Translations under genes and position numbers: made by a program
DNA from: Cenococcum geophilum
Taxonomy: Eukaryota
DNA length: 64,000 bases
Direction of reading: 5' to 3'
Assembly (NCBI GenBank): GCA_050273025.1
Contig: CP158635.1
Span: 8,184,001 to 8,248,000, forward strand
Part shown: positions 4,427-36,963 of the stretch, one piece after another
Position numbering within the stretch: the stretch's first letter is position 1
Layout: every line of letters starts with the position of its first letter
Notes under the pieces: generated by a model
Databases searched by the model: none
What the model was told of the DNA's origin: nothing
Seen by the model: only the letters and a program-made list of their open reading frames with translations

Positions 4427-4619
4427 TGTTATGGGACGGGGGCAGTAGCTATAAAGCGTATATATTTAAGGAGTCTACAAAACATTACGCGATCAATTGT
4501 AAGGGTTAAGGGCGTAAGGAGGTAATATACCTACGCGTAGCTAATATAAGCTATACGTAAGGTGTACTTAAAAGTACAGGGCTCTCCTATAGAGGCCCCT
4601 ATAGTGGGGTTCCGTAACA
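4427..4619 (-). repeat. 3' LTR of B1
   Basis: TG...CA; direct repeat of 10599-10791, 28615-28807 and 34785-34977. Confidence 0.95.
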
Positions 4620-7600: not shown

Positions 7601-10598
7601 GTATATTTAAATTGGCCAAAGCGCGATATAAATACGGTTTTTTATTTATTACCTTCCCGTATTTAGAGATAGTTAAAGGGGGCGATAATATTAAGCTTAG
7701 TATAGATTTTGGCTTAACTAAGCCGCTTAAGGGTTTTACGTATAAGTAGTACTAGGTATTAGTTTTTAATTGTAATAGCATTAAGTCCTCTATAGTTAAT
7801 ATAGAATTAAATACCTCTTTTTAGCTTCTTAGTAAGAAGAATAGGGGCGGCTGTTAGTAATATACTGAGATAAATAAATCCTTTATTAAGGTACTTGTTA
7901 ATATAATTTTTTATAACTAAAAGTTCGTCTTTTAATATTAGGTAGGGTCTTTTATAAAATAGCATTTTTCCTTATTTAATATTAATGGTATAGTTATTAG
8001 GTTAATATAGGGGGAGTATATTTACGCTCTTTTATAAGCATATATTAGTAAAGTTATAGTACCTCTTAGGGAGAAGCTTACGGAGTTCTTTATTAGTAAG
8101 TCCTTTTTTAAGCTTTATAAACTTCTTAAAGTCTAAAGGTAAAAGTCTATAGAGTTCCGTAGGGGCGTTATCTTCTAAAAGGTTAACTATATCTATCCTA
8201 TTACTATAGAGGATATAGTCCTATTCTTTATTAAGCTTATATAGTTATAATTAGGAAGCTATAGTAATGGTTTAGCCTTTTTTATATACTATATAGTAGA
8301 AGGCCGGGGCACTTATATAGTAGTAGTTAGTCATAGGTAGAGTAATAAGGGGTTCCTTAGGTTAATATTTTAGGAAGTAAATAGAGGCGGCTAGGCTATG
8401 CCCTAGGCAAGTCTCTCTATAGTATTTAGAGTTAAAGGTTACTTTTTTCTTCTTTTAGTTAATGGCGGGGTTATATTATTTAAGCTAGTTTATTCTAAGG
8501 ATAATAGGGTAGTTAGTAAGTAGTATAATATAGGCCTAGAGTTCTTCCTAGTGCCTATTTATATCTAGGTGGAGTTATACTATATAGGTAATCTTTTATA
8601 TAGTATAATTACCGTTAGCGAGTTATAGGGCGCGGGCTTTAGTAAGAGGTAAGGTAGGTAGGTTATAAGTATATACAAATTAGGTATCTATAAATTTATT
8701 AATAGCTCTATAATTAATTATAGAACGGCTTTTATATTATTTTTTAGTAGTAGTTCCTATTATAGGTAAAACTATCTATTTCCGTCTATTTATTTTTATA
8801 GAGTTATCTATTAAGTAAGCTAATATATAGATCCCTTTATCGTTAGGGCGTCCTAACCTGTAACTTAGGGCTAGGACTTAGCGTTTTCCGTTTCCATATT
8901 TAACTCTACCGCTATTACTATATCTTCGTCTTATACGGTAGTAGTATATAATAATATATTTAATATTTAGGGTATTAGGTTAGGTATTAGGCGGCAGCTA
9001 CTAAACCTAGCTATTAGGTAGTTTAGGTTATCGCAATAATAGCCTTCTTAACGGCATTTATAGTAGTGTCCTAGTTTCTAAAGTAGCTCGCGCTCTCTAT
9101 TTAGGAGTTTTTATAGGAAGGTTAGTATAGAGAAATTAATATTAGTTCTAGTAGTACTTAAAGTAATAGGTGTCAGTGGCTTAGTATATATAGGTTTAGT
9201 AGGCCCAAGGGGCTTCTATAAAGAGATCTTTAGGTAAAAGTTAGTAGTAGTAATCTAATTTAGTTATTGTTTAATCTTCTATAGAGCTGCTACTATATTA
9301 TAAATATTATTATAGTTATAGCTAGCGGCTGCGTAACTAAGGCGATAAGTAACTTTTTTAAGGAGGTCCTTTTAGTCTTTAATATCGTCTTAGGTAAGAG
9401 CTCTAGTATATTCCTAGAATTTAATATAGAATTTATTAAATAATTCGGTAGGGCTTATCTTTAGGACATGTAGTTTAGCTTAGTTAGTAGCCAGTAGGTT
9501 ATAGTTACGGTATATTAGATTAAGATTATTAAGGACTTCTTAGTAGGACTGCCACTTCTAGGGGCTATTAGTCTCCTATTAGGTAAAGAGTCTATTAAAC
9601 AGTATACCATTTATTCACCTAATAATGTAGCTGATCTTAGTGTCTTTTGTAGGAAAAAGGCAGGCGCTTTAAGTTAGTTTCTCGCAGATATATATCTTCT
9701 AGTAGCTATATTCTTTACAATTTCCCTAAAAAACTAGGGGATTAAGGTAGCGTATATTAGACCCTATAGTAGCAGTTTAGGTCTAATTATTATAGCTTTC
9801 GTTATTACTGCTTTAGTAGGGGTTCCTATTAGGTAAAGCTACTTAGCGCTAGCCTTCTATTAAGTATTAAGTAGGTAAAGTTACTAGGGGCGTAAAAACT
9901 TAGGTAGCATTATATATAGTAAAGAGGTATCTAGCGTTATTACGAATATACTTATTAAGCTAAGATTATAGGTATTTAATTATGCCTTTTCTTTTAGTAA
10001 ATATAGTAATTAGTATAATCTTAGCCTTCTTTAACTGTTAGATGTCGCGTTTAGATATATAGAGGTTATCTTTAGTTTCTTAACGTATATTATTAGCGAG
10101 CGCCTTATAAGCTTATAGGTCTTAGATAATATCGCGATCTTAAGTAGTATATATCTTGGCTTATATAAGCTTTAAGTAGTAGTTTTATAAAAGGCGGTAG
10201 TATTTATTAGGGTTTTGTGCTACTATTTTTACAAACGTCTCGGCGTCTCGTATTTTAATTTTAATAAGTAGTAGCCCTTCTATTTGCTTGTCTATAGTTA
10301 TATAGTTAATAAAAAAATAAGATATTATTAGTGTCCGTCTCCTTAGGGGTTAAGGCTAAAGCTAATAAATTAAATTCTCCTAGGATTAATTGGCGTCGTA
10401 GGTTAAGTATAGGTATTAGATTGTTCTTTAGGTTTAATATAATAGCTAATAAGAGATATTATCTTACTATTATGGGTTCCTTAGAAGTATAAAGTAAGGT
10501 AGTTTATAGATACGCTGCTTTTAGCAGCACCTACAGTATTATAGAGACGTAGAATTGGTCATAGGCTAAGCGTTAGTGGTAAAAAAGGCGTAACGTAA

Positions 10599-10791
10599 TG
10601 TTATAGGACGGGGGCAGTGGCTATAAAGCGTATGTATTTAAGGAGTCTACAAGATATTACGCGATCGATCGTAAGGGTCAAGGGCGTAAGGAGGTAATAT
10701 ACCTACGCGTAGCTAATATAAGCTATACGTAAGGTGTACGCGAGAGCACGGGGCTCTCCTATAGAGGCCCCTGCGGTGGGGTTCCGTAACA
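10599..10791 (-). repeat. 5' LTR of B1
   Basis: TG...CA; direct repeat of 4427-4619. Confidence 0.95.
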
Positions 10792-11615
10792 CTAAAGTTA
10801 TATACTTAGGCCTAATTATATTCTATAACGGAATTGAAATAGACCCTAAGAAAATCGCTATAATTATAAACTAGGAAAGTTCTAGTAGTATATAAAATAT
10901 TTAAGGTTTTTTAGAATTTGCAAATTTCTATTATTAATTTATTAATTACTTCTTAAAAATTATTTAGCTATTAATAAACTTAATAAAAAAGAATATAAGA
11001 TTTAAATAGACTACTAAATATAAATAAGCTTTTAACGACCTAAAATATTATTTTATAACTGCTTTAATTCTTACTTACTTTAATCCGGACTTTAAATATA
11101 TTATTAAAACAGACTTGTCTAATTATATACTAGAAGGAGTATTATCACAATATAATAAAAATGGCGAGTTATACCTAATAGCCTTTTTTTCCCCGAAAAC
11201 TTACCTCTGCTAAATTAAACTATAAGATTTATAATAAGGAACTACTTATAATTATTAGGTATTTTAAATAATAGCGTCTAAAACTTAAAGGATTGTTATT
11301 TTTAATACGCGTATTAACGGACTATAAAAACCTATAGTACTTTATAACTATAAAGCAATTAATATAATATTAAATTTATTAGGCCAAACACCTCTTATAA
11401 TTTAACTTTAAGATTATACACTAACCTAGTAAACTTAATTAAAAGCCTAACTTATTAATATAATAATTATAGAACCTACCTACTAACGCCTCTAATAAAT
11501 GGATTATAAACCAATTACAAAATTTACTGCCCCTTAAATACTTTAAGAAACTACCCCCTATATTTTTAAATATAGAGCTTAATAGGAATAAATTGGAAAT
11601 TAATAAGTGGGATAT

Positions 11616-11862
11616 TGTTCGTACCAATTTAATGGCACGAGTGAGTCAGATCCAGGGGCACGAAATACGTATAGTATCGTATGCTCTTTTGGATGATAGT
11701 GACTGTCGATTGTATTGAAGCAGACTACGTGGTCTATATACTAATGCGTCCCTCCCCCCTTGATTAGTCAGTGCTTCAGAAGTGCACCAGACGCGTAAGC
11801 GGGTGGTTAGTGCACCCAACGCGTAGACGCGTGGTTGGTACAATAGGTGCTGTAATTATACA
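11616..11862. mobile_element. Solo LTR (247 bp) of a family not otherwise seen in the window, little RIP
   Basis: TG...CA ends; 5-bp TSD GATAT at 11611-11615 and 11863-11867; normal CA/TG content. Confidence 0.88.
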
Positions 11863-14080
11863 GATATAGAAATTAATAAATTAATAAAGTATAAATATAA
11901 AAATGACCCTTAGATAGTAGATATAATAAAAGCGATTTAAATAGGGAAATAGTAATATAAGGGTATTACACTTACCGAATGCGAAATCCGTAATAATCGG
12001 TTATACTATTAATAAAAGATAGTAATCCCAAATTCTAAACCCTTATAATTTATATATAATTCCCCTATAGTAGGGCATCCTAGCTATATAAAGACCTATA
12101 AGATTATCTAATAAGTATATTACTAGCTTATAATATATAACTATATATATAAATACGTTTAACTATATAGAATATGCGTATGCGGGAAGACCTCTTATAT
12201 AAAGAAGTAAGGAGTACTTTAACCGTTGCTAATTCTAATATAAAGATAGTAAAATATCTTAATTAACTTTATAGTTAACCTGCCTAATAGTAATAGGTTT
12301 ATAAATATTATAGTAGTTATTAACTATCTTATAAAAATACAATATATAATTCCTATAGACTTAATTAATGCAATATTAGTAGCCGAATGTTTTATTAAGT
12401 ACGTCTTTAAGCTATATAGACTTCTTAATTTAATAATATCCAACCGCGAAAGCTAGTTTATTTTAGACTTTTAGTAAGCCTTATATAAATAATTAAGTAT
12501 ATAAATATAACTCTAACTATATTTTATTTAGAAATAGATAGTTAAACTAAAATTGACAACGTAATTATAGAATAATACCTATAAATATACTGCTCCTACC
12601 TATAAGATAACTAGAAAAAGTGGCTACTTTTAGCTAAGTTTACTGCGAATAATATAAAAAACGAATTAATAGGCGTAACGCTATTCTATACAACCTACGG
12701 ATAAAACCCTTAACTTAGATTTAAACTATAACCTAAAATTAATATAATAGGACCTATAATTAAGAGGATTTAACTAATTAATATATATAACTTTGTTAAT
12801 TAAATAAAGTAGTTAACGGAACTATTATAAAGTAAATTAGCGTACGCTTAAATAGTATAAGAATAGTATATAAATAAAGAATAAGCTCCCGCGTGGGACT
12901 TTAAGGAAGATAATATAGTTTACCTAAATATATAAAACCTAAAGACTTAATAACCCTTAAAGAAACTTAATTGGAAGTTTATGGGCCTATACTAAATTAA
13001 AAAGAGACTAAGCCTATATGCTTATAAGCTTAAACTACTAACTAAGATAAAAATATATTTAGCGTTTTATATAAGCTTACTATAACCTTTAAAGAATAAA
13101 CCTATAACTTGGGAAGTACCGCTACTACTTCCTATAATTATTAACAATGGTAATAGTTCTTACTTTATTAACTTAATTAATAATATATTATAGAAAATAT
13201 AATCTAAATAATTTAAACTTCTTATTAAGTAGGAAGGATATAAAATATAAACTTAGGAAACCTATAACTAGATTAAGACTAACGCGCCTTCCCTAGTAAA
13301 AGAATTCTATAAAGACTATCCTTTGCGGCCTACTTTAGCTAAATAGATATAATATAAAGGTAAATAACTACTACCTAATATAAATATACAAAATATAATA
13401 GTAGGAAGCTTAAAATTAAAAAGAACTTAAAATACGTTATAATATTTATAATATAATTATATAATACGCAAGATATTAAGGAACTTTAACCGCCAGTTAA
13501 AGTTGTCTAATTAGTTAAATTTACCTTACCAAGACCTATTATAAGGATGCTAGTTTTACTTACCGCCTTAACTAAGCTAATAGCGATTTTTTATTCTAGG
13601 GATGGAAAATCCTAATTAGCCTATTTAATAATAAAATTAGTAAAACTCTATATATTATATTATGATATTTAATTACGCTATTGCGGCTCCCGTTAGGGTC
13701 CATATAGTGGGTCTATATGGGTCTATATATATATATGTATAAGAGGGGAACCGTACTGCTAGGGCCGGATAAAACCTCTCCTTCTCTTGTTATATGGCCT
13801 GTATAGCTTATTATACGGCCTATATAGCCTTTTTTCTAATTAGTGACTGCCAAGCACAAGTAGACGTCTCTTTAAGGCGCTACAGAAAAGCTATCTTAAT
13901 GCGTACTCCTAGGTCTATCCGGTAGGGTGTATAGCTAAAGCCTAGGTTCTGTTTCTAGCTGCTTTAGTTATCTAGGTAGGGCGTAGGCTAGTGGCCTATA
14001 AGGCTGGTAGTGGTGTATAAGGTTCCTTTATTTATATCTGCGTTAATATACGCAGCTTTATACCTTGCTAAGTTTTATTA

Positions 14081-14400
14081 AGTTTTATTAGGATATTAAC
14101 CTCTACCAAATTCTGCCCGGTTACTAAATTCTATTAAATTCTGCTAGGTTGCTAAAGTTCTGCCAACTTCTGTTAGGTTATTAGATTCTGCTAGGTTACT
14201 AAGATTCTACCAAATTCTATTAAGTTGCTAAAACTCTACCAAATTCTGTTAGGTTACTAAAATTCTACCAACTTCTATTAGGTTGTCCAATTCTGCTAAA
14301 TTCTACCAGGTTAATAAGTTCTGCTAAATTCTACTAGGTTGCTAAAGTTCTACCAACTTCTGCCAGGTTGCCATCTGTAAAATTCTGCTATATTCTACCA
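14081..14400. repeat. Degenerate tandem array of ~10/19-bp units (AAATTCTGCC / AGGTTGCC type) in LINE1 3' UTR
   Basis: Directly visible repeats such as aaattctgct, aaattctacc, aggttgct. Confidence 0.85.
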
Positions 14401-15419
14401 TCCCTACAGTATTTATCCTCCGCCTCTTAACGCACTTCCTAGCCTCCTCTCTTTACCCTAGCCAGCTCTCTAGCAAATAAAAGGTGTAGTAAGAGGTTTA
14501 TCTACATAAACCAGTCCGCAACTGCCTTAGTAGCCTTTAGCTTAGTTAGGAGCTCTTTATATAAGGATATTCCAGCACAGTAATATATTTCCGCCCGGCT
14601 AGCAGCGTGCCTAGGGCAGAACACCACTACGTACATTATTAATTGTTAGCTATAGCCGCATAGGCAGGCCGGAGTTAGGTACCCTAGTACTTTTTGGTAG
14701 TAGAGGTATCTGTTAAGCCCTATATACTCAGTTCTAAGCAGCGTATTAATTATACTCTCTACCCTTATAAGCCTTACGTGGCGTTTAAAGACTTCCTTAT
14801 TCTATAGCTTGGCCTAGGCCGTTATATAGTGGGTAAGCGTGCTCTAGTACTTTTCCTATTCCCTTTTCTACCGCTCCTTAAACGCCTTTTATACCCCAGC
14901 CCTTCTACTTCTCTTATACTGCGCTTTAGATAAGTCCATTGGCCGTATATCTATCCCTAAGATAGCGGCCGCTATCCTCTTAAGCTTATCCCATCTAGTG
15001 GGCCATATTAATGGCTTTATTCTAGGCCGGAGTTAGTAGGCTATTATGGCCCATATAGTGTTACACTCCCTCTTAATATACTTTCTTGCTGGTCCTTCCC
15101 GCGTTCTCTCCGCGTAGGCTATAGCTAGCTCTTTAAGGTGTATCTATAGCGGCGGAAACCCCGTCTCGTGCTCTAGTACTACTGTTAGCGTTAATTTATA
15201 CGCCCCCGCAATAGTGCGGAGGCATAGGTTCTATACTACACCCAGCTAGCATAGCTTAGTTTTGCTTATCTCCTTAGGCTTCGTCCACTCCAATAGCGAG
15301 TACTAGGTACTACATCTATATAAGATTGCCGGCCGGACCACGGCGGAGTATATTATCCGCGCCTTCTAGAAGGAGGCGCCCCATATAGAGGCCGTAAGCC
15401 GGGTTAATACGGCTATTTA
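14400..15419 (-). pseudogene. LINE1 ORF2 C-terminal fragment (post-RT region and CCHC zinc finger)
   Basis: De-RIP QMAALTRLTASTWGASFQKARMIYSAVVRPAISYG and LRTEHIGLNxYL..PACPCGYSRQSVxHVVVFCP. Confidence 0.85.
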
Positions 15420-17021
15420 GCAGGTAGTTATATATTAGCTAGTAGTGCTAGTAATATAGTAGAGTTTAACATACCTGCTTATCTAGGCCTCTACCCCAGT
15501 TTTCTAGTGCATTATCCCAGTCTATAAGTAGTTGGCTACTACCACCAATAACACGGGGAGTTTTACCAGTTCTTTTGGATATCTTATAGCTGGTCAGTCT
15601 GCCCCCCAGCAGTCTATATAAGAGTTTCCTCCCAGAGTTGGTACGCTTTCGCACGGCTTAGGAGCCTTCTATAGCCTCTGGTCTCACGCCTTTCTTTATT
15701 ATTTCCGCCGGTACGGGCATAAGCTGCCATTTCCAGGGGTCGCAACTCCCGTCTTACATACCTACTGGCGTAATCCTACGAGGGCGTCGTAGCTGCATCC
15801 TGCAATATGGAAGCCTTGGGTGCACCTTCTACAGTTAAGGCCAGCCAAACCTCTCCCGCCTAAGTAACTCCTGTTTGCTCCTTAAGCGTGCCTCACTAGC
15901 GTACTGCCCTAGCGAGCAGTCCTGTCTATTAGTACACCGACACGCGCATCCGTTTTTTCGAGCCACGTAGTAGTCTCTCCGGCCAGGACGTGATCCTACC
16001 TACCTACCAGGTGCACCAGGGGTCAGAGCCCAGTTAAGGGGTGAGGTCCCTAGAGCCAGCAGTGGCTACTACGTACTACGCCCCGCGGGAGGTTCCCGTT
16101 TCGCGTTGCCTGTAAGAGTCTCCTCATGACAGGCCGACCGTGTCTTGCAGGAGGGGGGCCGTAGAGACACCAGGTCCCGCACCAGACGACCTGCTCCCCC
16201 CCCTCCTACTAACCAAGCTTGTGTCCCCCCTTTTTATAAGCTGGCCTGTGTCTCTAACTATCGAGTCCTCGTCCAACTGGCCTGTGTTTCCTTAGAGCCT
16301 CCCCCATATAATACGCGTCAGGTTGCGTGCACCACGCCTATTAAGACCCTCCTGTGAGTCACCTGGTCGAACGCCATGGGGCCGTCGAAGCTGGCCTGTG
16401 TTTCCGCTGCCTAGAGCTTTGCCCGTGTTTCCACCTCGTTAAGCCGTCTGGTCGCCGTCGCGTCGCTATCACGTCGCTGTCGCGTCTGTCGTCCAGGTCG
16501 CGCGCACCACGCCTATTAAGACCCTCTTCTGAGTCACCTGGGTGTCGGATAGATAGGCCCTTGTAGAGGGGCCTTAACGAGTTCTCTAGGCAGGGCCTTA
16601 ACAAGTTCTTTGCGGTGGCCTTGGGGCCTTAACAAGTTTCGTACGAGGTATCTACGACGCGTTAACCTTAACAAGTTCTTATAAAAAGAGGTTCCCTACG
16701 CCCTCGCCGCATCCCTTTACGATCTCAGAGCTAGTGTAAGCCTAAGGGTGTCCTGTTATATGACTAGGACGCATCTACGTCAACTAGCTATAATAAGGCC
16801 AGTTTCGGGCCTGGCTATAAGCCAGGTAGTCGTATATCGGGTAGTTTTCGTATCCTAGTTTCCCTTAATAGGCCTCCCTAGGTGGTAGAGCAGGAGCCTC
16901 AAGCGGAGGCAGTAAGGCTTCTGGTGTTGTTGAGGGCGATGCGTACACGTCGCGAGCTCAACACCACAGAACCGCAGCGACAGCGCGCTACACGCGCTGC
17001 GACGGCTCTCTACCATCGCCT

Positions 17022-17106
17022 CTGCACTTGGCCATCAAAAGGAACGATTTCCTGATGATGTTTCCACCCGCGGCGACGTAGACGCGTACAGTAGGGCTTC
17101 GCGGGC
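17022..17106 (-). ncRNA. HDV-like self-cleaving ribozyme at the 5' end of element G, copy 1
   Basis: P1 GCCCGCG/CGCGGGT with first G.U wobble; P2 CTGYAC/GTGCAG; P3 GCG/CGC; L3 TCYACGT; P1.1 GG; P4 CATCA..AGGAA/TTCCT..TGATG; J4/2 GCCAA with the catalytic-C position at 17031. G1 abuts the TSD. Confidence 0.88.
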
Positions 17107-17211
17107 AGTAAAACTCTATACCGCTACCCAACGCAACTATATAAATATAATAAATAATAAGTCTTAACTAAATTAAATTATTTTAAACCTTTAGCTAAAA
17201 AGGGGGGGTAC

Positions 17212-20200
17212 TATAACGGGACTAGCCTAGTTATAGTAGGAACGTCTTAGTAAAACACTTAATAGATAAATTCTGTTATAGGACACCCCTATAATACCTT
17301 ATACACGCCTACCTACTTTTACTATCTACGAGATCGCAATTTGCCGCGACCTATAGCAATCTAACGGTAATCTGCTATATTCTGCTATATTCCACTAAGT
17401 CCTACTAAATTCTGCTAAATTCTGCTAAGTTTTACTAAATTCTGCTAAGTTCTGCTAGGACTATATCCTAAATCCTATTTTACTCCATGTACGTATTAAC
17501 TAAGCAACTAAGTTAACAATATATACCCTTTCTTCCCGTTTTCCTATCTTCTTTCCTTACGCAACGTCTTAACCTTATTACACAGTTTATATATATAGCT
17601 TAATAATATCTACTCTACTATATATTATCGTCGCTTATACTTACTCCGTAATACTATATTACGTTAAACCTACCTTATACTGCCCCGTCTAATATATAAA
17701 ACAACCTAAAAGCCCCTATATCTATAAAAGACCTATATACTATATTTACCGAATAAATAAAGACTCTATAATAGGCCTTTACGAACACCCTTGCCTATTA
17801 AGAAGCCCGATATTATAAGTTAATCAAATCTCTAAAAAAAGAAATTAAAGAGATCCGCTAAAACCCACTATCTACCCTACCGTTACCCCTACTCGCCGCT
17901 ACTAGTATTAACCTATAAACACTAGGTAGAGAGAATATATCTAAAACTAGCTCCTTAACCCCAAATTTGCTAACTAGTACCCCTAGAAAGAAGTTAACTA
18001 AACATCTCCCTAATCCTCCCGCCTATTTAGGTAATAGAAGTAAACTATACTCCTTCCTTAACCAACTTAAGAATAAGCTAAATAGTAATATTAATCGCTA
18101 CCTAACTCCTAATAACTAGTTGTGTTACGCTATAAGCCGCCTAATAGGAGACGCCGTAAAAACTATATACCTATTTCAGCTAAGCACTATAAAAAACTAG
18201 TCACTATACTAAAAGCATCTTACAGCAACCCTAACCAAATTATTATAGTATAAAGAAAACCAAATAAGATAATATAAGGCTCTAAGAGCTTTCTATTATA
18301 CTTTACTAAATTCTACTACTATATTAAAGAGACTAGATGGAACAAACCCGCCTTAATTAATTGCCTAGTAGAGTCCCTAAACTCCGAACTAAAGGCTTCC
18401 CTTATAAAAGTTAAGCTGCTAAATACCCTTACCGCCTGTGCTAATGTTATTAACGGCTTATATAACGATATACTACACCTTACCCTAAAACATATATCCT
18501 AATACTCCGCCCCCTAGCCGCCTAAGACTCGCAAGGATCCGGATACTATAGATATTGATACTAGAATACTAGAGTATACTCTACTAGGGTTCTTTAAATA
18601 AGAACAACGCATTAAGCTAGGCCTTTACTTTAAGTGCGGAAGTAAAGACTATATCTTAAGAAACTATTCCGTCCCTTTGCCTACGCCCTAAAACGATTTA
18701 TAAACGGCTAATTTTAGTAACTATCTACCGCGCCCAACCTTAAGTTATTACTTATAGCCTTCCTTATCCGGTTCCAGGCCTACGCCTAGTAAGCGCCACT
18801 TATAAGGACGAAGCTATAACTAATATACTACGAGAACTCCGCCCTAATTACCTATAAAAGGAAGGTTTTAGAGCTAAGTCGCTCTCTAGGATAACTCTAT
18901 CTTAGGATTTTATTAAATGCTTTAGATATTACAAACTCTAACTTTTAGGATTATAGCATAACCGTTAACTGCCGCCTTTAGCAGAATAATTAATAGGCTA
19001 ATGCTTAAGTCCTAATTAATACAGGAGCTAGTAGTATAGGATTTATTAATAAGATCTTCGCGTAAGATAATAGTTTTACCCTAAACCCCCTTAACCGGCA
19101 TATTAACGTATTTGGATTTAATAGTAAACGCATAGTCTTAGGCTAAATTACCTATATAGTATATCTAAGACTCTAATACCTAAATTACGAAGAACTAATT
19201 AGGCTTTTTATCATTACCCTAGGTTACCTAATAATCCTTAAATAACCCTAGATAAAGCTATATAAGGTAAATATTAATTAGGACAACCTTAAGCTTTTAT
19301 TTACCGCCTTATAATATAAGCTAGAATGCTCTATAACACACCGCTCTAACCCTAAACTAAAATCTAAGAAATCTACTAAGATCCACTAGCCTAAGATTTC
19401 TACCAATATCTACTCTACGCCTAAGGAATCTACCAGATTCTACTAGTATAGGAATTCTACCGAATTTTACTAATATAAGAAATCCACCGACATCTACTAA
19501 GGATCCGAAAATTCTGCTAAATTCTATAAGTTATTACTAAGCATTACACCGCCCTAAACTAAGTAAAAGCTTAAGCTTAGTATATAAAACTACTAAAAGA
19601 ACTAATACCCTATAATAAAAAGAATACTTAAAGAACCTAAACCTAAATCTAATACTAACTCTATACCTAATACTAAACCTAAACCTAAATAAGGAACTAT
19701 GGACAATCTAAGCAAGCTCGGCACCCTAAATATCCGCATAATTAAAGCTACTCTATTAGTATAACTTACTAAAAAACCTAAACATACAATCTTCGCTATT
19801 ACTATAGCTAATATTAAGAAGGCCTTAGCACTGAAAAAGTATACTAACCCTACCATAAAGGTACTAGTAGAGTATTATTATCGCCTAGATGCATTCTTAT
19901 AAAAGGAAGCTAATAAGCTACTAGAACACCGACTATACGACTATAAAATTATACTTAAAAAAGGAAAGTAGCCTAGATTTAGACCCTTATATAGGATATC
20001 CCAAAATAAACTCTAAGTACTATAAAAGTATTTAGACGAGAACCTAAGTAAAGGATTTATTAGAGTAAGCTCGTCGCCTATAGCCGTACTAGTAATCTTT
20101 ATTAAGAAACCTAGTAGCGGTTTACGCTTCTATATAGACTACTAAGCTTTTAATACTATTACTGTTAAGAACTAATATCTAATTCCATTAATATAAGAGA

Positions 20201-23200: not shown

Positions 23201-23530
23201 TACTTTGCTATATATTATCGTCGCTTATACTTACTCCGTGACAAATTCCAACACTTTATCCAAATTCTACTAAAATTTACTAGCTTAATTAACTTCTGCT
23301 AAGTTCTGCTAGATCTATTAAATTTTACTAAAGTCTGTTAAAGACCGCGTACGTATATGCGCACGCATTGACCACTAAGTCCCTAACTATTTAATTATAT
23401 AATTCTCTTATTATTCCTTTCTCTTCTTTACGCAATGTCTTATTCTTAGCGAGAGCTATATACCCTTAGATTTAGATAAAATTTATATTATTCCTTTAAA
23501 TCTTTCCTAAAGTCTCTTCGCGCCCTTATA
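17212..23530 (+). repeat. 3' LTR of gypsy A, split by C (17212-17273 plus 23249-23530)
   Basis: Follows the PPT; RIP-altered ends TATAACGGG...CCCTTATA; the right end is inferred because no second copy is in the window. Confidence 0.65.
17274..23243 (+). mobile_element. Ty3/gypsy chromovirus C, full length (5970 bp), RIP-inactivated
   Basis: 380-bp LTRs at 17274-17653 and 22864-23243; TSD AATTC; gag with CCHC ~18620-18670; protease LIDTGAS ~19010; RT ~19970-20600; RH, IN, chromodomain ~22655-22810; PPT ~22853-22860. Confidence 0.96.
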
Positions 23531-27647: not shown

Positions 27648-27733
27648 GCCGGCGAAGCCCTACTGCACGCGTCCACGTCGCCGCAGGTGGAAACATCATC
27701 AGGAAATCGTTTTCTTTTGATGGTCAAGTGCAG
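27648..27733 (+). ncRNA. HDV-like ribozyme at the 5' end of G, copy 2 (catalytic C changed to T at 27724; one P1 mismatch)
   Basis: GCCGGCG-AAGCCCTA-CTGCAC-GCG-TCCACGT-CGC-CGCAGGT-GG-P4-GTCAA-GTGCAG. Confidence 0.85.
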
Positions 27734-28614
27734 AGGCGATGGTAGGGAGCCGTCGCAGCGCGTGCAGCACGCTGTCGTCGCGGTTCTGTGGTGTTGAGCT
27801 CGCGACGCGTACTATCAAAGCATCGCCCTCAACAACAGCAGGAGCCTTACTGCCTCCGCTTGAGGCTCCTGCTCTACCACCTAGGGAGGCCTATCAAGGG
27901 ATACTAGGATACGAAAACCACCCGATATACGACTACCTGGCTCGTAGCCAGGCCCGAAACTGGCCTTATCATCAGCTAGTCAACGTGGACGCGCCCTAGC
28001 CGTACAACAGGACACCCTTAGGCTTGCACTAGCTCTAAGATCGCAAGACAAGGGCGTAAGGAAACCCTTTTTTATAAGAACTTGTTAAGGTTAACGCGTC
28101 GTAAATACCTCGTATAAAACTTGTTAAGGCCCTACCTAGAGAACTTATTAAGGCCCCTCTACGAGAGCCTATCCGGTACATCCAGGAGACTTAGAAGAGG
28201 GTCTTAATAGGCGTAGTGCGCGCGACCTAGACGAGACAGTGTTGCGATAGCGACGTGACAGCGGCTAGATGGCTTAACGAGGTAGAAACACGGGCAAAGC
28301 TCTAGGTAGCGGAAATACAGGCTAGCTTCGACGGCCCTATGGCGTTCGACCTACGGTCGACCTACAGGTGACTTATAGGAGGGTCTTAATAGGCGTAGTG
28401 TATATAACCTAATGTATATATATAAGGCGACTTATAGGAGGGTCTTAATAGGCGTAGTGTACGCAACCTAGTATATATATATATAGGGGAGGTCTTAAAG
28501 AAAACACAGGCCAGTTAAATAAGGTCTTAACAGTTAGAAATATAGGCTAGCTTATAAAAAGGGGGGGACATAAGCTTAGTTAGTAGGAGAGAAGGGAGTA
28601 GGTTACCTAGTACG

Positions 28615-31600
28615 TGTCACGGGACGGGGGCAGTGGCTACAAAGCGTATGTATTTGAGGAGTCTACAAGACGTTACGCGATCGATCGTAAGGGTTGAGGG
28701 CGTAAGGAGGTAATATACCTACGCGTAGCTGACATAAGCTATACGCGAGGTATACGCGAGAGCACGGGGCTCTCCTATAGAGGCCCCTGCGGTGGGGTTC
28801 CGTGACACTACCCCCCCTCTTATAGAGGCGGAGCTCCGGCGACGCTGTGGTTACTATATATATATAGAAGAAACACTTAAGGTATAGAAAAGAAGAAAAG
28901 GGGGGTATCGCTAAAGGCTTAAAATAATGTTATATAATAGGGCTTAGTATCTAAGAATCTAACCAATTAGATAACTTTAACCGCCGGTTAAAGTTCCTAG
29001 ATATCTTAACGATATTCTAGTCACGTAATCGCACTTTACCATAATCTGACGGCAATTTAATAGCAATTTGCCCTTATGTGGTAATATATAACGGTTTAAC
29101 TCTATAAGGGCTCCTATAGAGGATTAGGTATAAAGTCTCTACTTAGGCCCGGTTTCTATAGGTTCGCGTAGTAAAAGTTACTAATTAGATCCTTTGCATT
29201 TTTAAAGTCTTCCTATAGTTGCCATTCTAGCTAATCTATATTAAATCCTGTGTATATAGCTCTGTAGTAGAGCCGTCGTCCTCTGCCTTTACTAAAGTAT
29301 TTAGAGTTAATAATTCGTTTAACGGTCTACTCCTTATGGTTCTTATCTTTGTTCTTATCTTAGATTAGTACTAGTAGGGGTTTAGGCTATATCTGCCCTA
29401 ATAAGGGGTTAGGCTAATAGAGATATAGTAGCTATAGGTAAAATATAGGCTATATTCCGCGGGTGGCTAGGGCAGGTAGGAGTTCTAGCTTATATACGGC
29501 TCCCCTATTAATAACTCATTTAATTAGATAGGGGCTAAGGTTCTTATAATTAAGTGACTTTATAGGCCTTTACGTAAAGATATTATGTATATCTAGCTAT
29601 ACCTAGTCGCCAACATGCATCTCCGGTGGTGGCGTTCTATAACGGTCGGCGAAGTAGGCCTACTTTACTTAAGCCTAGGCCATTTCTCCCTTACAGTAGT
29701 TAAGTAGATTTTTTATATGGTCTGCATACTAGTCGGTAAATAGCATCTTAAGGCGTTTTCTATATGGCAGTTTCTTATTAATAGGTTCTGGTGGCTCTAT
29801 ACTAGATTAGGGGTAATAACCCTTATTCGCAAAGAATGGGGTAAGTCCTATAGTAGTTAAGACGTGGTTATTCGCTGCGAATTCACCTAGTAGGAGGTAA
29901 TCCACCCAGTTATCTTAACTATAGGCGACTACCTGTTATAGGTACGCTTTTATACTGGTATTAGCGTTTTCTAGTTACCTAGTAGTTTTATAGTAAAAGG
30001 ATATAGACATCTTAACGGAGATGCTAAGGCGTTAGTAGATTCGTCTCTATATATTGGAGTTAAATTATATGCCTTGGTCGGACGTAATTAAGTTAAGTAA
30101 CCTATATAGTCGGTAAACTTTGCGGAGAAAGGCGTTAGTAACGTCGCTAACGGCTACGCCTTTGGTTAGGACGTAGTGGCGCTCTTTTATAAGTCGGCAT
30201 ATTATTATAAGGATGTTCTTATAGGTACGGCCGTGTTATTTATAGGGTAGTAGGTTAACAATGAAATCTATAGCAATATCTGCCTATCGTTATATAGGTA
30301 TTAATAGAGGGTATAGTAGTCCTTGGTACTTTATATTAAAGGCCTTAGCGCACTTATAACCGTAGTAGGCGCCTATAAAGCGTTTAACTAAGTCTATTAT
30401 TTTTGGCTAGAAGTAGTATTAGCTAAAAAGCTTATAGGTTCCTTCTCTACCTAGGTGGCCGCTTAATCAGAGGTTGTAGGCCATTTAGATTAGTTGCCGT
30501 TATAGATTTTCTAAGTTAGGGATAAATAGGTGGCCTCTATAATAGAGCCTGTTCTCTTTTACTTCTAAGGCTGCTATATTAATCTAGCCTAAGCTTTAAA
30601 GGTTAGTAGGCAGCGTATAGGCGCTAGCGGTCTTTACGGTAATAAGTTAATGCAGTAATAGGTCGGCAGAGGCGTTATATGCTATAGTAATAAGCTCGTT
30701 AATTTTGGGAGGTAATTCTAGTTCTGTGGTATAAAGCTGGGGTATAGTTGGCTCTATTATAGGTAGTATACCTAGGGCCAAATTTCGTATTTTTAGAATC
30801 GTTTATTGTTAGAACTAATTATAGGGGTTATCTTTAAACTAAGGAAGGTCTTGCGAGCGGCGTGTTAGGCTATTAGGTTTAGTACCTTATACTCCTAGTC
30901 TATATGTAATTTTAAAGTTAAAACCAGAGAGGAACTCGTTCTAACGTGCTTAGCGTTAGTTTAGCTACTTTGTGGTTATAAAGTACTTAAGGTTACAATA
31001 GTCCGTAAGAACTTTAGTTGGCTAGTTAGGCTCTACTAAGGAGAGTTCTGGTTAAAATTCTTTAAACGCTCGTATAATTATAAGGAGTTCTTTATTATAG
31101 ATCTTGTAGTTACACTCTTATAGTATAAGCTTAGACGAGTAGAATATAACTAGGTAAAGGAGACCGTTATTACCTATTTGGGAAAGGATGCCTGCGTTAA
31201 CGTGGTCTAAGGAGTTAGTTTTAAGGTAAAGTTATTGTCCTAGTGTAAAGTAAGCTAGGACAGGTGCTTTAGTAAAGGCATTTTTAAGGTCTTGGAACGC
31301 CTTCTCGCATTTAGGCGTTTAGGTAAAGCGTAGGTACGTTTTTCTTCCTTTTGCAGAAAGGCCCTTTATTTGTATTATTGCTATAAGTGGTGCTACTACG
31401 CCTAAGAAGTTATATATGAATTTCTAATAGAAGTTGGCGAAACTAAGGAAGGCTTATACGTCCTTAATGCAGTTAAGGGCTTGCTATTTAGTAATTATGC
31501 GTACCTTCTTAGGGTCTATATAGACACCCTTAGTAGTAATAATTAGTCTAAGGTATTTTACTTCTGTAACTAAGAATTTATATTTCTTTAAATTAATATA

Positions 31601-34600
31601 AAGTCCTACGTCCCTAAGGCGCTGTAGGACCTTTTAAACGTGTTTAGTATGCTTAGAGGGGTTATCGCTATAAATAAGTATGTTATCTAGGTACGCGGAG
31701 TAGAAGTCGTTAAAGTAGTCCCATAAGGCGTTATTAATATAGCTTTAGAAGGTGCCTAGGCCGTTATATACGCCAAAGGGTATAATAGTATATTTAAATT
31801 GGCCGAAGCGCAATGCGAATGCGGTTTTTTATTTATTACCTTCCTATATTTAGAGGTGGTTAAAGGCGGCAATAATATTAAGCTTAGTATAGATTTTAGC
31901 TTAACTAAGCCGCTTAAGGGTCTCACGTATAAGCGGTACTGGGTATTAGTTTTTAATTATAATAGCGTTAAGTCCTCTGTAGTTAATATAGAATCGGATA
32001 CCTCCTTCTAGCTTCTTAGCGAGAAGGATAGGGGCGGCTGCTGGTAATATACTAGGACGAATGAATCCTTTATTAAGGTGCTTGTTGATATACTTTTTTA
32101 TAACTAAAAGCTCGTCTTTTAACATTAGGTAGGGTCTCTTATAAGATAGCATTTTTCCTTATTTAATGTTAATAGTATAGTTATTAGGTTAATATAGGGG
32201 GAGTATATCTACGCTCTTTTATAAGCATATATCGGTAAAGTCGTAGTACCTCTTAGGGAGGAGCTTGCGGAGTTCTTTATTGGTAAGTCCTTTTTTAAGC
32301 TTTATAAACTTCTTAAAGTCTAAAGGTAAAAGTCCGTAGAGTTCTATAGGGGCGTCGTCTTCTAGAAGGTTAACTATATCTATCCTATTACTATAGAGGA
32401 CGTAGTCCTATTCTTTATTAAGCTTATATAGTTATAATTAAAAAGCTATAACAACGGTTTAGCCTTTCTTATGTGCTATGTAGTAGAAGGCTAGGGCACT
32501 TATATAGTGGTAGTTAGTTATAGGTAGGGTAATAAGGGGTTCCTTAGGTTAATATCCTAGGGAGTAAATAGAGGTGGCTAGGCCATGCCCTAGGCAAGTC
32601 TCTTTATAGTATTTAGAGTTAAAGGTTACTTTTCTCTTCTTCTAGTTAATAGCGGGGTTGTATTATTTAAGCTAGTTCATTTTAAGGATAATAGGGTAGT
32701 TAGTAAGTAGTATTATATAGGCCTAGAGTTCTTCCTAGTGCCCATTTATATCTAGGTAAAGTTGTGCCATATAGGTAATCTTCTATGCGGTATAATTACT
32801 ATTAGCGAGTTATAGGGCGCGGGCTTTAGTAAGGGGTAAGGTAGGTAGGTTATAAGTGCGTATAAATTAGGTATCTATAAATTTATTAGTAGCTCTACAA
32901 TTAATTATAGAACGGCTTTTGTATTATTTTTTAGCAGTAGTTCCTATTATAGGTAAAACTATCTATTTCCGTCTATTTATCTTTATAGAGTTATTTATTA
33001 AGTAAGCCGATATATAGATCCCTTTATTATTAGGGCGTCTTAACCCACGACTTAGGGCTAGGACTTAGCGTTTTTCATTTCCTTATCTAACTCTACTGCT
33101 ATTACTGTGTCTTTGTCTTATATGGTAATAGCGTATAGCAATATATTTAGTGTTTGGGGTATTAGGCTAGGTATTAGGCGGCAGCTACTAAACCTAGCCA
33201 TTAGGCAGTTTAGGTTATCGCAATAATAGTCTTCTTAACGGCATTTATAGCAGCGTCCTAGTTTCTGGAGTAGCTCGCGCTCTCTATCTAGGAGTTTTTA
33301 TGGGAAGGTTAGTATAGAGAAATCGATATTGGTTCCGGTAGTACTTAAAGTAGTAGGCGTCGGTGGCTTAGTATATATAGGTTTAGTAGGCCCAGGGGGC
33401 TTCTATAGAGAGGTCTTTAGGTAAGGGTTAGCAGTAGCTATTTAATTTAGTCGTCGTTCGATCTTCTATAGAGCTGCTACTATATTATAAATATTGTTAT
33501 AGTTATAGCTAGCGGCTGCGTAACTAAGGCGATAAGTAACTTTTTTAAGGAGGTCCTTTTGGTCTTTAGTATTATCTTAGGCAAGGGCTCCGGTGTATTC
33601 CTAGAATTTAACATAGAATTCGTTAAATAATTTAGTAGGGCTTATTTTTAGGGTATATAGTTTAGCTCGGTTAGTAGCTAATAGGTCGTAGTTGCGGTAT
33701 ATTAGGTTAAAATCGTTAAGGACTTCTTAGTAGGACTGCTACTTCTGGGGGCCACTAGTCTCCTATTAGGCGAAGAGTCTATTAAACAGTATACCCTTTA
33801 TTCGCCTAATAATATAGCCAATCTTAATGTCTTCTATAGAAAAAAGGCAGGCGCTCTAAGTTAGTTTCTTACGGATTTATATCTTCTAGTAGCTGTATTC
33901 CTTACGGTCTCCCTAAAAGACTAGGGGATTAGGGTAGCGTGCATTAGACCCTACGGTGGTAGTTTAGGTCCAATTATTATAGCTTTCGTTATTACTACTT
34001 TAGTAGGGGTTCCTATTAGGTAAAGCTGCTTAGCGCTAGCCCTCTATTAAGCGTTAAGTAGGTAAAGTTACTAGGGGCGTAGAGACTTAGGTGGCGTTAT
34101 ATATAGTAAAGAGGTATCTAGCGTTGTTACGAATATGCTTATTAAGCTAAGATTATAGGTATTTAATTATGCCTTCTCTTTTAGTAACTATAGCAATTAG
34201 TGCAATCTTAGCCTTCTTTAACTGTTAGACGTCGCGTTTAGACACATAGAGGTTATCTTTAGTTTCTTATTATATATTATTAGCGAGCGCCTCACAAGCT
34301 TATAGGTCTTGGATAATATCGTGATCTTAGGTAGTACGTATCTTAGCTTATATAAGCTTTAGGTAATAGTTCTATAAAAGGCGGTAGTATTTATTAGGGT
34401 CTTATGCTACCATTTTTGCAAACGTCTCGGCGTCTTATATTCCGATTTTAATAGGTAGTAGCCCTTCCGTTTGCTTATCCGTAGTTATATAGTTAATAAA
34501 AGATAAGATATTATTAATGCCCGTCTCCTTAGAGGTTAAGGCTAGGGCTAATAAATCAAATTCTCCTGGGATTGATTAGCGTCGTAGGTTAGGTATAGGT

Positions 34601-34977
34601 ATTAGATTGTTCTTTAGGTTTAATATAGTAGCTAATAAGGGATATCGTCTTACTATCGTGGGTTCCTTAAAAGTATAAAGTAAGGTAATTCGTAGACACG
34701 CTACTTCTAGCAGCGCCTGCAGTATTGCAGAGACGTAGAATTAGTTATAGGCTAAGCGTTAGTGGTAAAAAAGGCGCAACGTAATGTTACGGGACGGGGG
34801 TAGTAGCTATAAAGCGTATGTATTCGAGGAGTCTACAAGACGTTGCGCGATCGATCGTAAGGGTCAAGGGCGTAAGGAGGTGATATACCTACGCGTAGCT
34901 GACATAAGCTATACGCGAGGTGTACGCGAGAGCACGGGGCTCTCCTATAGAGGCCCCTGCGGTGGGGTTCCGTAATA
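28615..34977 (-). mobile_element. Ty3/gypsy chromovirus B, copy 2, full length (6363 bp), RIP-inactivated
   Basis: 193-bp LTRs at 28615-28807 and 34785-34977; collinear with 4427-10791; flanking duplication TACG; ORF 31946-32152 is a surviving RT fragment. Confidence 0.96.
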
Positions 34978-35780
34978 TACGGGACCTAGCGTCTCCATAG
35001 CCCCCTCCTATAAGATATAGTCGGCCTATTATAAGGAAACTCTTACAGGCAACGCGAAACGGGAACCTCCTATAGGGTATAATGCGTAATATTTACTGCT
35101 GGCTCTAGGGACCTTACCCTTTAGTTAAGCTCTAACCCCTAGTGCACCTAGTAGGTAAGTAGGATTATATCCTAGTTAGAGAGACTACTATACGGCTTAA
35201 GAGAATGGATACGCGTATTAGTGCACTAATAGACGGGACTACTCGCTCGCTAGGGTAGTACGCCGGTAAGGTACGCTTAAGGAGTAAATAGGAGTTACTT
35301 AGGCGGGAGAGGTTTTAGCTAGGCCTTAACCATAAAAGGTATACCTAAGGCTTTTTACATTATAGGATGCAGCTATAACACCCTTATAAAATTACGCTAG
35401 TAGGCGCGTAAGACGGGAGTTACAACCCCTATAAATGGCAGCTTATACCCACGCTAGCGGAAATAATAAAAAAAAGCGTAAAACTAGAGGTTATAGAAGG
35501 CTCTTAAGCCGTATAAAAGCGTACTAACTCTAGGAGGAAACTCTTATATAGACCGCTAGGGGGCGGACTAGTACTTAGGCTAATAACCTATTATAAGATA
35601 TCTAAAAAAACTAGTAAGAACCCCTATATTATTAGTGGTAGCAGCTAACTGCTTATAGAAAGCCCCTTTAGGGCTAAGGGCCTAGAGGTTTAAGATCGTT
35701 ACTAAAAAACTAGGGTAGAGGCCTAGATAAGTAGGTATATTAAACTCTACTATATTACTAGCTAATATATAACTACCTGC

Positions 35781-36963
35781 CTAGACGTAAAAGGGGCTTT
35801 TAATTATATCTCTAAAAACTAGCTTTTATCCATCTGTAAGGAACTAGGACTACCTATAGCGTTTATATAATAAGTAGCCACTTTCCTTAGCAATAAAAAG
35901 CCATAGCTCTCCTTTAATAGGCAAATATAAGAAAAAGTAGAACTAGAAATAGGGATACTATAGGGATCGCCTATATCCCCTATTTTATTTCTACTATATA
36001 TACGCAATATCTGCAGTATATAGACAGAAGGAGCCTATTCTCTTAGCTACATAGATAATTTTACAATTACGGTTAACGTATTCTACCAGCGAGCCGGCCA
36101 CCCCACCAAGCCGGCCACTTCAAAATACACTAAAAAGCCGATATTTTAATCTCAAATATCTTAACCACTACTTAATAATATTTTCTGAAAATTTAAATAT
36201 AAGCTCTTATATACCTATTTTAGTATATATTATAATACTAAAGCGTATAACTTAGTGGTTATTATAATATAGAGTTTAGGGGTTAAAAATAGAGATATTT
36301 TTAAATATCTTAACAACTACTAGAGGGTATACTCTTATATTGTAATAAGTACTAAAATAGGTATATGAAAGCTTATATTTAAATTTTTAGAAAATATTAT
36401 TAAGTAGTGGTTAAGATATTTAAGATTAAAATATCGGCTTTTTAGTGTATTTTAAAGTGGCCGGCTCGGTAGGGTGGCCGGCTCGCTAGTAGAATACGTT
36501 ACTTTAAATTCTACTAAATCTAATTATAAAAAGCTAGAGAGAATAGCGCTAAAGCTAATATCTAAAGCTAAAGAAGCTACTATTAGTTTTAATGTTAGCA
36601 AAATAGAGCTTATATACTTCTATAGTAAACGTACCACTATAAAAAAAGAGTTAAAGCTAGGAGACATAAAAATATCCCCTAAACCCCTAGTTAGGTAGTT
36701 AGGGGTATTCCTAGACTCTAAGCTTACTTTTAAATAATATATAGAAATACAAATCCTTAAAGCAAAGGCAGCCTTCTATTTAATTAGAAGGCTAGGTAAT
36801 ATATAAAAAAGTCTATCTCTATAAGCCCTACAACAGCTCTATATAGCTTACATTACTACTATAGTAGACTATAGAGTACAATACTAGTAGAAAAGCAAAT
36901 CTAGAGACTACCTACTAGATAAGTACTAATCTCTATAAAATAAGGCCCTAAGACTAGTTTTAG
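35781..36963 (+). pseudogene. Tad1-clade LINE2 reverse transcriptase fragment, interrupted by a MITE and cut off by gypsy D
   Basis: De-RIP LDVKGAFDHVS, GIPQGSPVSPILFLLY, SYIDDF, WLGVFLDSKLTF; ORF 36474-36698 is part of it. Confidence 0.9.
36076..36499. mobile_element. Tc1/mariner (pogo/Fot1-type) MITE, 424 bp, ~150-bp terminal inverted repeats
   Basis: ACGTATTCTACCAGCGAGCCGGCCACC...GGTGGCCGGCTCGCTAGTAGAATACGT; TA TSD; removal restores the LINE frame (ITVTSNS). Confidence 0.93.

Follow-up and report, generated by a model that had tools for sequence, protein, structure and literature searches.

To our knowledge, the chimeric element MINE and its non-coding 5′ module WEIRD, described in 2005-2007, have so far remained a curiosity of a single species, in which WEIRD was supposed, as a guess, to be an RNA with a housekeeping role. 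According to the part of the published description that was available (PMC2104539), MINE of Magnaporthe grisea consists of the full-length 1.1-kb non-coding WEIRD RNA fused to 5′-truncated copies of MGL, a long interspersed nuclear element (LINE). That part counts 33 chimeras with 28 junction sites and target-site duplications (TSDs) of 10-20 bp, reports no solo WEIRD and one tripartite element, gives GCC*A/U as the motif at the switch sites, has WEIRD joined to both MGL and Mg-SINE, and explains the chimeras, as we do here for another element, by template switching of reverse transcriptase (RT) (PMC2104539). Here we describe a system of this kind in a stretch of 64,000 nt from Cenococcum geophilum (contig CP158635.1 of assembly GCA_050273025.1, positions 8,184,001 to 8,248,000), which we call the window and to which all coordinates refer. 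It contains two copies of a non-coding element, named G, each of which is joined at its 3′ end to the 5′-truncated remainder of a different LINE. An earlier note on this DNA had interpreted G as a discrete RNA that becomes attached to partial LINE RNAs or cDNAs, and had added that no fungal element like it was described. The former view, which was its core, is supported by the results below; the latter is contradicted by MINE.

The G chimeras are of the same kind as MINE: they have the MINE features that we tested, namely a constant module, a truncated LINE in the sense orientation and an enclosing TSD. In both systems the 5′ module is full length, non-coding and expressed and has a fixed 3′ end, and the 3′ module is a 5′-truncated LINE entered at many junction sites, with a TSD around the whole chimera. 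Moreover, multi-part chimeras exist in both, and the junctions are non-random with a CC motif (GCC*A/U in MINE, T|CC copied in G). Solo WEIRD is not reported, and a solo G was not found in the ∼0.5 Mb examined. The likening of G to WEIRD, and of the partners of G to MGL, is based on the published description and not on sequence comparison. New with respect to MINE are a ribozyme-like head (a hepatitis delta virus (HDV)-like fold at G base 1, none being reported for WEIRD), partners from at least five LINE families as compared with MGL and Mg-SINE, frequent G-G chains (10 of 89 junctions), and a far higher copy number (at least 83 loci versus 33 MINE elements). Furthermore, G is longer (1.69 kb versus 1.1 kb) and its host genome is degraded by repeat-induced point mutation (RIP). 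A literature search that did not extend to subscription journals yielded no report of a ribozyme on WEIRD or MINE, and among the publications found, judged by their titles and the beginnings of their abstracts, none described a chimeric template-switching element with an HDV-like head. RNA-LINE chimeras are therefore not confined to Magnaporthe; a second, much larger system exists in a different, RIP-affected fungus, and its 5′ module has the look of a selfish RNA that processes itself by means of a ribozyme head, and not of a host gene.

The window is AT-rich repeat DNA (GC about 0.30-0.39) with GC-richer islands at 15-17 kb and 27.6-28.6 kb, and the stops and transitions found across all its reading frames fit fungal RIP. 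The two chimeras are made up of the following parts:

15421..17106, minus strand: G copy 1, full length, non-coding, with little RIP and a GC content of 0.49-0.56 (sequence, blastn)
17015..17106, minus strand: head of G copy 1, with an HDV-like ribozyme fold for which cleavage is predicted just 5′ of G base 1 (17106)
13653..15420, minus strand: 5′-truncated LINE1 tail, the C-terminal region of open reading frame (ORF) 2 past the RT core (translation)
17107..17120, no strand: upstream copy of the TSD, AGTAAAACTCTATA on the plus strand, an exact 14-mer that abuts G base 1
13639..13652, no strand: downstream copy of the TSD, the same 14-mer, abutting the LINE1 3′ end
27648..28614, plus strand: G copy 2, 5′ part, RIP-mutated (blastn, 77% to copy 1)
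27648-27748, plus strand: ribozyme head of G copy 2
28615..34980, plus strand: long terminal repeat (LTR) retrotransposon nested in G copy 2 and no part of G (196-nt direct repeats)
34981..35780, plus strand: G copy 2, 3′ part, ending in ...AACTACCTGC (blastn, 76% to copy 1)
35781..36963, plus strand: 5′-truncated LINE2 from RT motif A (LDVKGAF) on (translation; RVT_1 28.2 bits, E 1.9e-6)

When copy 1 was used as query in blastn, these two copies were the only ones found in the 64 kb. As the earlier note had stated, they share their 5′ base and their 3′ end: both start with GCC(C/G)GCGAAGCC and end with ...TAATATATAACTACCTGC, which is evident from blastn and from the sequence itself. The C at 15420, the base after copy 1, is also present in copy 2 and probably belongs to G too. 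Copy 2 had been given as a single stretch (27648-35780). Its ends are correct, but it is not contiguous, since the LTR retrotransposon, with LTRs at 28615-28810 and 34785-34980, splits it at 28615-34980 and G sequence continues from 34981. The description of G as a 1.7-kb non-coding element is in line with its length of ∼1,687 nt and with a longest stop-to-stop frame of 89 aa; no Pfam domain was detected in a scan of all six frames of G. A word corresponding to a telomere template is likewise absent from G, and the idea that G is a telomerase RNA was dropped.

Translation confirmed that copy 1 joins LINE1 past the RT domain and copy 2 joins LINE2 inside it. In the region that both tails cover, LINE1 and LINE2 clearly belong to different families, each being just 30-41% identical to a third one. 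Directly after G copy 1, the LINE1 tail reads ..IAVLTRLTASIWGASF.KARIIYSAVVRP.. / ..LTRLTASIWGASF.KARIIYSAVVRP.., followed by a CCHC-like motif. This tail gave no match in Pfam and is 32-34% identical (tblastn) to the post-RT region of LINE-A, the main partner of G in other loci (see below). The LINE1 3′ untranslated region (UTR) contains 29-nt tandem repeats at about 14065-14400 and has an A/T-rich end. The frame after G copy 2 opens with LDVKGAFNY, which is RT motif A; at 36074-36501 a hairpin insertion interrupts LINE2, whose tail ends at ∼36963, the rest of it being absent elsewhere in the window. The 64 kb contain the exact 14-mer AGTAAAACTCTATA at the two TSD positions only, and the pair encloses G copy 1 plus the LINE1 tail, so that the 14-bp TSD claimed for this chimera is present. 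A TSD for copy 2 could not be demonstrated within the window. One read joint that skips 3482 nt (from 13625 to 17108) was not accepted as an empty site; there are 14 unlike letters between its sides, one of which is 24 nt. Two side observations concern these tails. The hairpin at 36074-36501 is 428 bp long and near-perfect, with arms of 197 nt that are 87% complementary and a loop of 34 nt, and looks like a miniature inverted-repeat transposable element (MITE) or a foldback element. The 29-nt unit of the LINE1 3′ UTR contains ..TAGCAGAATTT.., and arrays resembling it lie at 17368-17477, 19364-19536 and 22962-23337; these are perhaps the 3′ UTRs of related elements.

Further copies were obtained by scanning metagenomes with a pattern of 23 nt that tolerates RIP and was taken from the 3′ region of G. 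At least 124 loci were listed, with flanks of 3 kb for 80 and of 0.3 kb for 44 of them, and partners were followed for up to 3 kb. Blastn with copy 1 gave a match in at least 83 loci (83 of the 124 listed), the other 41 being chance pattern matches in unrelated DNA. The G 3′ ends counted are 87 from the metagenomes (L042, which overlaps L041 on the same contig, was dropped) and two from the window, 89 in all; every count below that refers to 89 junctions or to 28 copies is a count among the matches listed. All 89 3′ ends stop at ...AACTACCTG or at a transition variant of it (CCTA in 45, CCTG in 35, others in 9), and beyond this point the junctions diverge into dozens of sequences. Full-length G is present in 28 listed loci (blastn), each copy opening with GCCCGCGAAGCC (GCCCGCG) or a RIP variant after an unrelated flank. 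The first base, which is the predicted ribozyme cleavage site, is identical in all 30 full-length copies that were aligned. The ends of G are thus as constant as the earlier note had anticipated. Many other copies are 5′-truncated beside unrelated DNA, as expected of incomplete reverse transcription.

Ten of the 89 junctions run into a 5′-truncated G and so form G-G chains. One arrangement, G + G(1286/1299-1686), was found with three different LINE partners (L022, L037 and L069), which indicates that it behaves as a longer G variant in which the last ∼400 nt are duplicated and which serves as the 5′ module. A full-length head-to-tail G-G junction was not found among the 89. Run X1 contains an apparent joint of this type, from 16815 to 15421 with the letters GCCCGCG inserted, which was rejected as an artefact caused by an internal near-copy of the G 3′ end, ACTACCTG occurring at G 277 and 1679; the inserted letters are the un-RIPped form of internal G sequence. 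As a separate observation, G nt 277-284 (16823-16830) nearly repeat the element's own 3′ end, nt 1679-1686 (15421-15428): ATATACGACTACCTGGC versus ATATATAACTACCTGC. We also noted a G subfamily in which nt ∼1284-1591 are lacking or replaced (L006, L023, L028, L030, L057, L084 and L096).

The sequences that follow G were examined by tblastn with X-masked translations of four partner stretches and of the two window tails. In 40 of 89 cases a LINE ORF in the sense orientation starts no more than 40 nt after the junction; an antisense one does so in none of the 89. A Pfam search with four frames gave RVT_1 at 58.7 bits for L007, and Exo_endo_phos_2 at 34.7 bits plus RVT_1 at 49.5 bits for L025. The partners represent at least five LINE families: family A, the L025 type, the L001 type, window LINE1 and window LINE2. 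Protein identity to family A is 42-46% for the L025 type; the values are 34-37% for the L001 type, 32-40% for window LINE1 and 30-41% for window LINE2. Copies inside family A are 64-80% identical, and identities between families amount to 30-46%. Single-linkage clustering lumped the partners of 62 junctions via flanking repeats and was left out of these family counts. The partner 3′ ends also differ between families, one type having a poly(A) tail. The family of window LINE2 is, by DNA similarity, also the partner in L106, L047, L097 and L089. No intact LINE ORF of at least 250 aa was present in any G-bearing locus. In addition, one partner without a protein match (CTATAAAATTGGCC..) is common to L023, L030, L060, L065 and L073.

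The same partner can be joined at staggered points, as in the series L035/L053 > L070 > L082 > L012/L037 > L118/L054/L088/L121. Partner lengths were anchored on 3′ ends defined by TSDs and the offsets were then propagated, which gave a position for 60 of the 89 junctions; their distances to the LINE 3′ end range from 358 to ∼3,600 nt. The junction in L005 lies ∼5.5 kb from the LINE 3′ end and 9 nt ahead of a probable ORF1 ATG; this distance comes from offsets chained by hand, the automatic placement of L005_2382 being inconsistent (-1414 to 5462). Partners and junction positions are therefore as varied as the earlier note had predicted. Its expectation that TSDs enclose whole chimeras also held: exact duplications of 12-16 nt flank 11 of the 28 full-length copies, in addition to window copy 1, as compared with two of 280 trials in which flanks were swapped between loci. 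All downstream TSD copies are located 450-3,000 nt past the G 3′ end, right behind a LINE-type 3′ end, and a TSD directly after G was found for none of the 28. G and its partner thus move together as one unit, as the earlier note had inferred for copy 1. The upstream flanks of G are unrelated to the partner. The junctions lack GT..AG, and an origin by splicing was therefore dropped.

The only one of 89 junctions in which an ORF1 start follows right after the G end is that of L005. The first 600 nt of the L005 partner, its ORF1 region, match four other LINE-A copies, which have the same ORF1 start preceded by another conserved leader (...GGAGCTCTTGCTGCACCCGGCC...GAAT|CCCCCTAAGATG). Since LINE-A has its own leader, the L005 junction is one more switch point. 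In L029, one of these four copies, another degraded G 3′ end is joined inside the LINE-A leader. G is not the 5′ UTR of its main partner LINE, and no G copy was found to have a TSD of its own; neither of the two findings that the earlier note had named as refuting its view was made.

The base composition at the junctions is not random. After ...CCTG, base C is found at +1 in 57 and at +2 in 58 of the 89 junctions (background C 0.20), and from +3 onward the composition is near background. Read-through copies of the same partner usually carry the same CC, often after T (T|CC), which suggests that the enzyme tends to quit the donor just after copying CC. The CC is absent from the donor in at least three junctions (L047, L043 and the second L029 junction), suggesting that G RNA may end in ...CCUGCC and that the CC would be a 2-nt microhomology. 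The last ∼60 nt of G can fold, with ...UACCUGC pairing with GCAGGUA; in the 89 copies this stem is compatible in 88.5% of cells, versus 13-52% when slid. When RNAalifold was applied to the 3′ ends of all 89 copies, this hairpin was not among the structures recovered. We also observed that at window position 35781 and at L032:3041 two different LINE families are joined to G through equivalent codons, those for the LD in RT motif A. Both partners start with CCTAGA, which is consistent with a sequence-guided choice of the switch site.

At relaxed thresholds, the full Rfam model RF00094 HDV_ribozyme (1-89) aligns to 17108-17015 on the minus strand and puts the cleavage site exactly ahead of G base 1, next to the TSD; at gathering thresholds, Rfam had no match anywhere in the 64 kb. 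The 28 full-length metagenome copies and both copies of the window (n=30) were aligned over their first 100 nt, and a hand-drawn double pseudoknot (P1, P1.1, P2, P3 and P4; 32 pairs) was scored on this alignment. Pairing was possible in 89.7% of 954 cells, versus 36-55% with the partners slid. The cleavage-site wobble G1.U41 is kept in all 30 copies, and the J4/2 stretch GGC(C/U)AAG is conserved, with G75 and A78-A79-G80 invariant and C76 present in at least 90% of the 30 copies. Both sides have changed in 10 pairs of the head helices. In L064 a G-C pair of P4 is replaced by U-A, and variants that are paired throughout also occur, L007 being an example. Together these data make it very likely that the first ∼90 nt of G have an HDV-like double-pseudoknot fold, and the fold model predicts that the head would cleave itself just before base 1. 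A covariance model, R1, was built from the 30-copy head alignment and applied to 444 kb (the window plus the loci). It gave 33 G-head matches, 30 of them training sequences; the remaining two were a fragment within a G head and a weak match to an unrelated contig. It did not detect the fold at LINE 5′ ends in these 444 kb. The head of copy 2 scores 109 bits, which is no independent test because copy 2 is among the training sequences.

Read data distinguish G from the LINE1 tail at both the DNA and the RNA level. In DNA run X1 the summed word depth was ∼5,400-12,600 over the LINE1 tail and ∼10,800-69,800 over G, with a step at the junction bin, and run X6 showed the same pattern. The depth over G is thus 2-4 times that over the tail, which is the reverse of what a LINE 5′ end would show. 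In the RNA contigs of run X15, G was covered at a depth of 444-12,565 and the tail at 0-3; as the LINE1 tail is multi-copy in DNA, it serves as a control against DNA contamination in this run. Among the raw stranded reads of run X21, up to 75 first mates lay on the plus versus 4 on the minus strand over G, and none over the tail; if the library is of the usual kind, this RNA corresponds to the sense strand of G. None of the matching RNA reads reaches 99% identity to copy 1, which indicates that other G copies are expressed. Two X15 RNA contigs pass G base 1 (17106/17107) and extend upstream into GC-rich sequence unlike the window. They may represent uncleaved precursor from another locus; their upstream letters are absent from all loci and from the window when up to 8 mismatches are allowed.

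Within G we observed a module of ∼48-59 nt (..GGGTCTTAATAGGCGTGGTG..) whose copy number varies, with two units in copy 1 (16319-16366 and 16494-16541) and four in copy 2 (28182-28483). X21 RNA reads contain a joint at this module that goes back 54 nt, indicating an extra unit in expressed copies. Four GTTAAGG motifs and three to four ACAC(A/G)GGC motifs lie close to the modules and are possibly an internal promoter or a protein-binding array.

The explanation that we favour, with moderate confidence, is that a LINE RT changes from its own template to G RNA, which it enters at the 3′ end, in many cases through the CC microhomology. G RNA would be a molecule of 1.69 kb with two fixed ends, the 5′ end presumably set by the HDV-like ribozyme at about nt 1-90 and the 3′ end, ...AACUACCUG(CC), able to pair into a terminal hairpin, and it would be incapable of initiating reverse transcription itself. 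The LINE RT would begin by copying LINE RNA at a nicked target (target-primed reverse transcription), would quit this template part-way, preferentially right after copying CC, and would resume at the 3′ end of G RNA. It would then reach G base 1, halt earlier, or jump onto another G, and the product would be a G-(G)-LINE-tail chimera within a single TSD. The ribozyme would free the G 5′ end from an upstream transcript, which would account for the invariant first base and permit expression from any transcribed insertion. The switch itself we infer from the sequences of its products. By analogy, the DNA pattern of the chimeras is the same as that ascribed to RT template switching in mammals and Magnaporthe.

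Several observations weigh against template switching as set out here, or reduce the strength of its evidence. Prior RNA ligation would predict the same DNA. With regard to the partners, the protein test assigned no class to 49 of the 89 (among these are 10 truncated G and several that DNA similarity places with LINE2 or with the poly(A)-tailed type), and a TSD of at least 12 nt is missing from the 3-kb flanks of 17 of the 28 full-length copies. A few junctions are common to 2-4 loci, and some chimeras may have been re-copied or duplicated, so that not all junctions would be independent events. The metagenome loci are mainly from three long-contig samples and may stem from one or a few related fungi, and no solo or source G locus was present in the ∼0.5 Mb examined. 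As to the RNA structures, covariation support for the 3′ hairpin is absent, since 71 of 500 shuffles reach the observed pairing, and the both-side changes in the head helices are mostly transitions that RIP can produce, which makes them weak evidence. Finally, the ribozyme head announced in the earlier note is very likely as a fold, given the pairing in 30 copies, but Rfam scores it below threshold: HDV_ribozyme reaches 26 bits (E 0.42 for a search of 2 kb), and its gathering score is 50.

The strongest competitor, which we consider rather unlikely though far from negligible, is that RNA ligation comes first. A Trl1- or RtcB-type ligase would join G RNA, with a 2′,3′-cyclic phosphate or an otherwise ligatable 3′ end, to LINE or G RNA fragments with a 5′-OH, and the chimera would then be retrotransposed via the LINE 3′ end. 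A constant G 3′ end, variable partner 5′ ends and a TSD around the whole are expected in this case as well, the donor preference for T|CC could come from an endonuclease instead of a polymerase, and a family that bears a ribozyme could yield cyclic-phosphate ends; human U6/L1 chimeras, as presented in the available part of PMC6789731, are a precedent. The ribozyme, however, cuts at the 5′ side of G and would not produce a G 3′ end unless copies were arranged head to tail, which full-length copies are at none of the 89 junctions. Moreover, the junctions without CC in the donor (L047, L043 and the second of L029) fit a G end ...CCUGCC with or without microhomology. A quite different view would be that a single LINE family has G as its normal 5′ UTR and that the chimeras are derivatives with internal deletions or splicing, amplified as non-autonomous elements like R2 SIDEs or NARTc. 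Ribozyme heads are indeed typical of LINE 5′ ends, as in R2. L1Tc is a further example according to the part of PMC3185411 that was available. The L005 junction 9 nt before a likely ORF1 ATG, the L029 junction within the LINE-A leader and the recurrence of a few junctions in 2-4 loci would also agree with this view. It is nevertheless very improbable and largely refuted, because an ORF1 start follows G at a single junction only while four LINE-A copies have a different leader, the partners come from at least five families, R1 ribozyme matches are essentially confined to G heads in the 444 kb, G has 2-4 times the DNA abundance of the tail, and the junctions are without GT..AG. The idea that G transposes alone into LINE-rich DNA, the LINE sequence behind it being target DNA, could appeal to a region so full of repeats that transposable-element neighbours are frequent for any insertion. 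It is refuted, and has next to no probability left, by the absence of TSDs around G alone, by TSDs past the LINE 3′ end in 11 of the 28 copies and for window copy 1, by partners that are sense in 40 and antisense in 0 of 89 cases, and by upstream flanks unrelated to the partner.

Template switching onto G RNA can also be set beside other RNAs that use LINE machinery. In mammalian U6/L1 and other small nuclear RNA (snRNA)-L1 chimeras the 3′ end of a full-length RNA is likewise fused to a variably 5′-truncated LINE within one TSD, and template switching or RtcB ligation has been proposed (PMC6789731, PMC2104539, in the parts available); for U6/L1, ligation is placed before retrotransposition (PMC6789731, likewise in part). 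In contrast to G, which is 1.7 kb long, ribozyme-headed and repeated in hundreds of copies, U6 is a 107-nt housekeeping RNA transcribed by RNA polymerase III from a known gene. R2 and R2 SIDEs are a ribozyme-headed LINE and its non-autonomous derivatives. L1Tc and NARTc are another such pair, as far as the available parts of PMC3185411 and PMC5814959 describe them. As proposed for G, these LINEs begin with an HDV-like ribozyme (at nt 1) that releases their 5′ end from upstream transcript, and their non-coding derivatives need LINE enzymes; their head, however, is tied to one family and has a fixed partner, whereas G joins unrelated LINE tails variably. Short interspersed nuclear elements (SINEs) are also non-coding and moved by LINE machinery, but they start reverse transcription from their own fixed LINE-like or A-rich tail, whereas G borrows varying LINE 3′ ends. 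As the tails differ from copy to copy and no TSD encloses G only, the earlier statement that G is not a SINE with a fixed tail holds.

We tentatively suggest, as a possibility that is less likely to be right than wrong, that G and WEIRD form a class of head-parasite retroelements, RNAs whose 5′ end is cut by a ribozyme and whose 3′ end is structured, which capture the RTs of unrelated LINE families in the middle of synthesis. If so, every event would yield a new G copy, and truncated or nearly full-length LINEs would gain a self-processing leader as a by-product. This would provide a mechanism for the replacement of LINE 5′ UTRs, and L029 and L005 would be autonomous G-headed LINEs in the making. 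The junction rule is simple (copy CC, then jump) and is open to in vitro testing, and the G chimeras offer a natural system to study template switching by LINE RTs and the way in which LINEs gain new 5′ ends.

Two observations remain to be mentioned. A related LTR plus internal stretch at 10002-10794 is 88-92% identical to the retrotransposon nested in G copy 2. Finally, at L048:1420-3040 a full-length G lies between two long open frames (269 aa and 259 aa), and the DNA there shows no obvious degradation by RIP; this G is a candidate for an active or recent copy.

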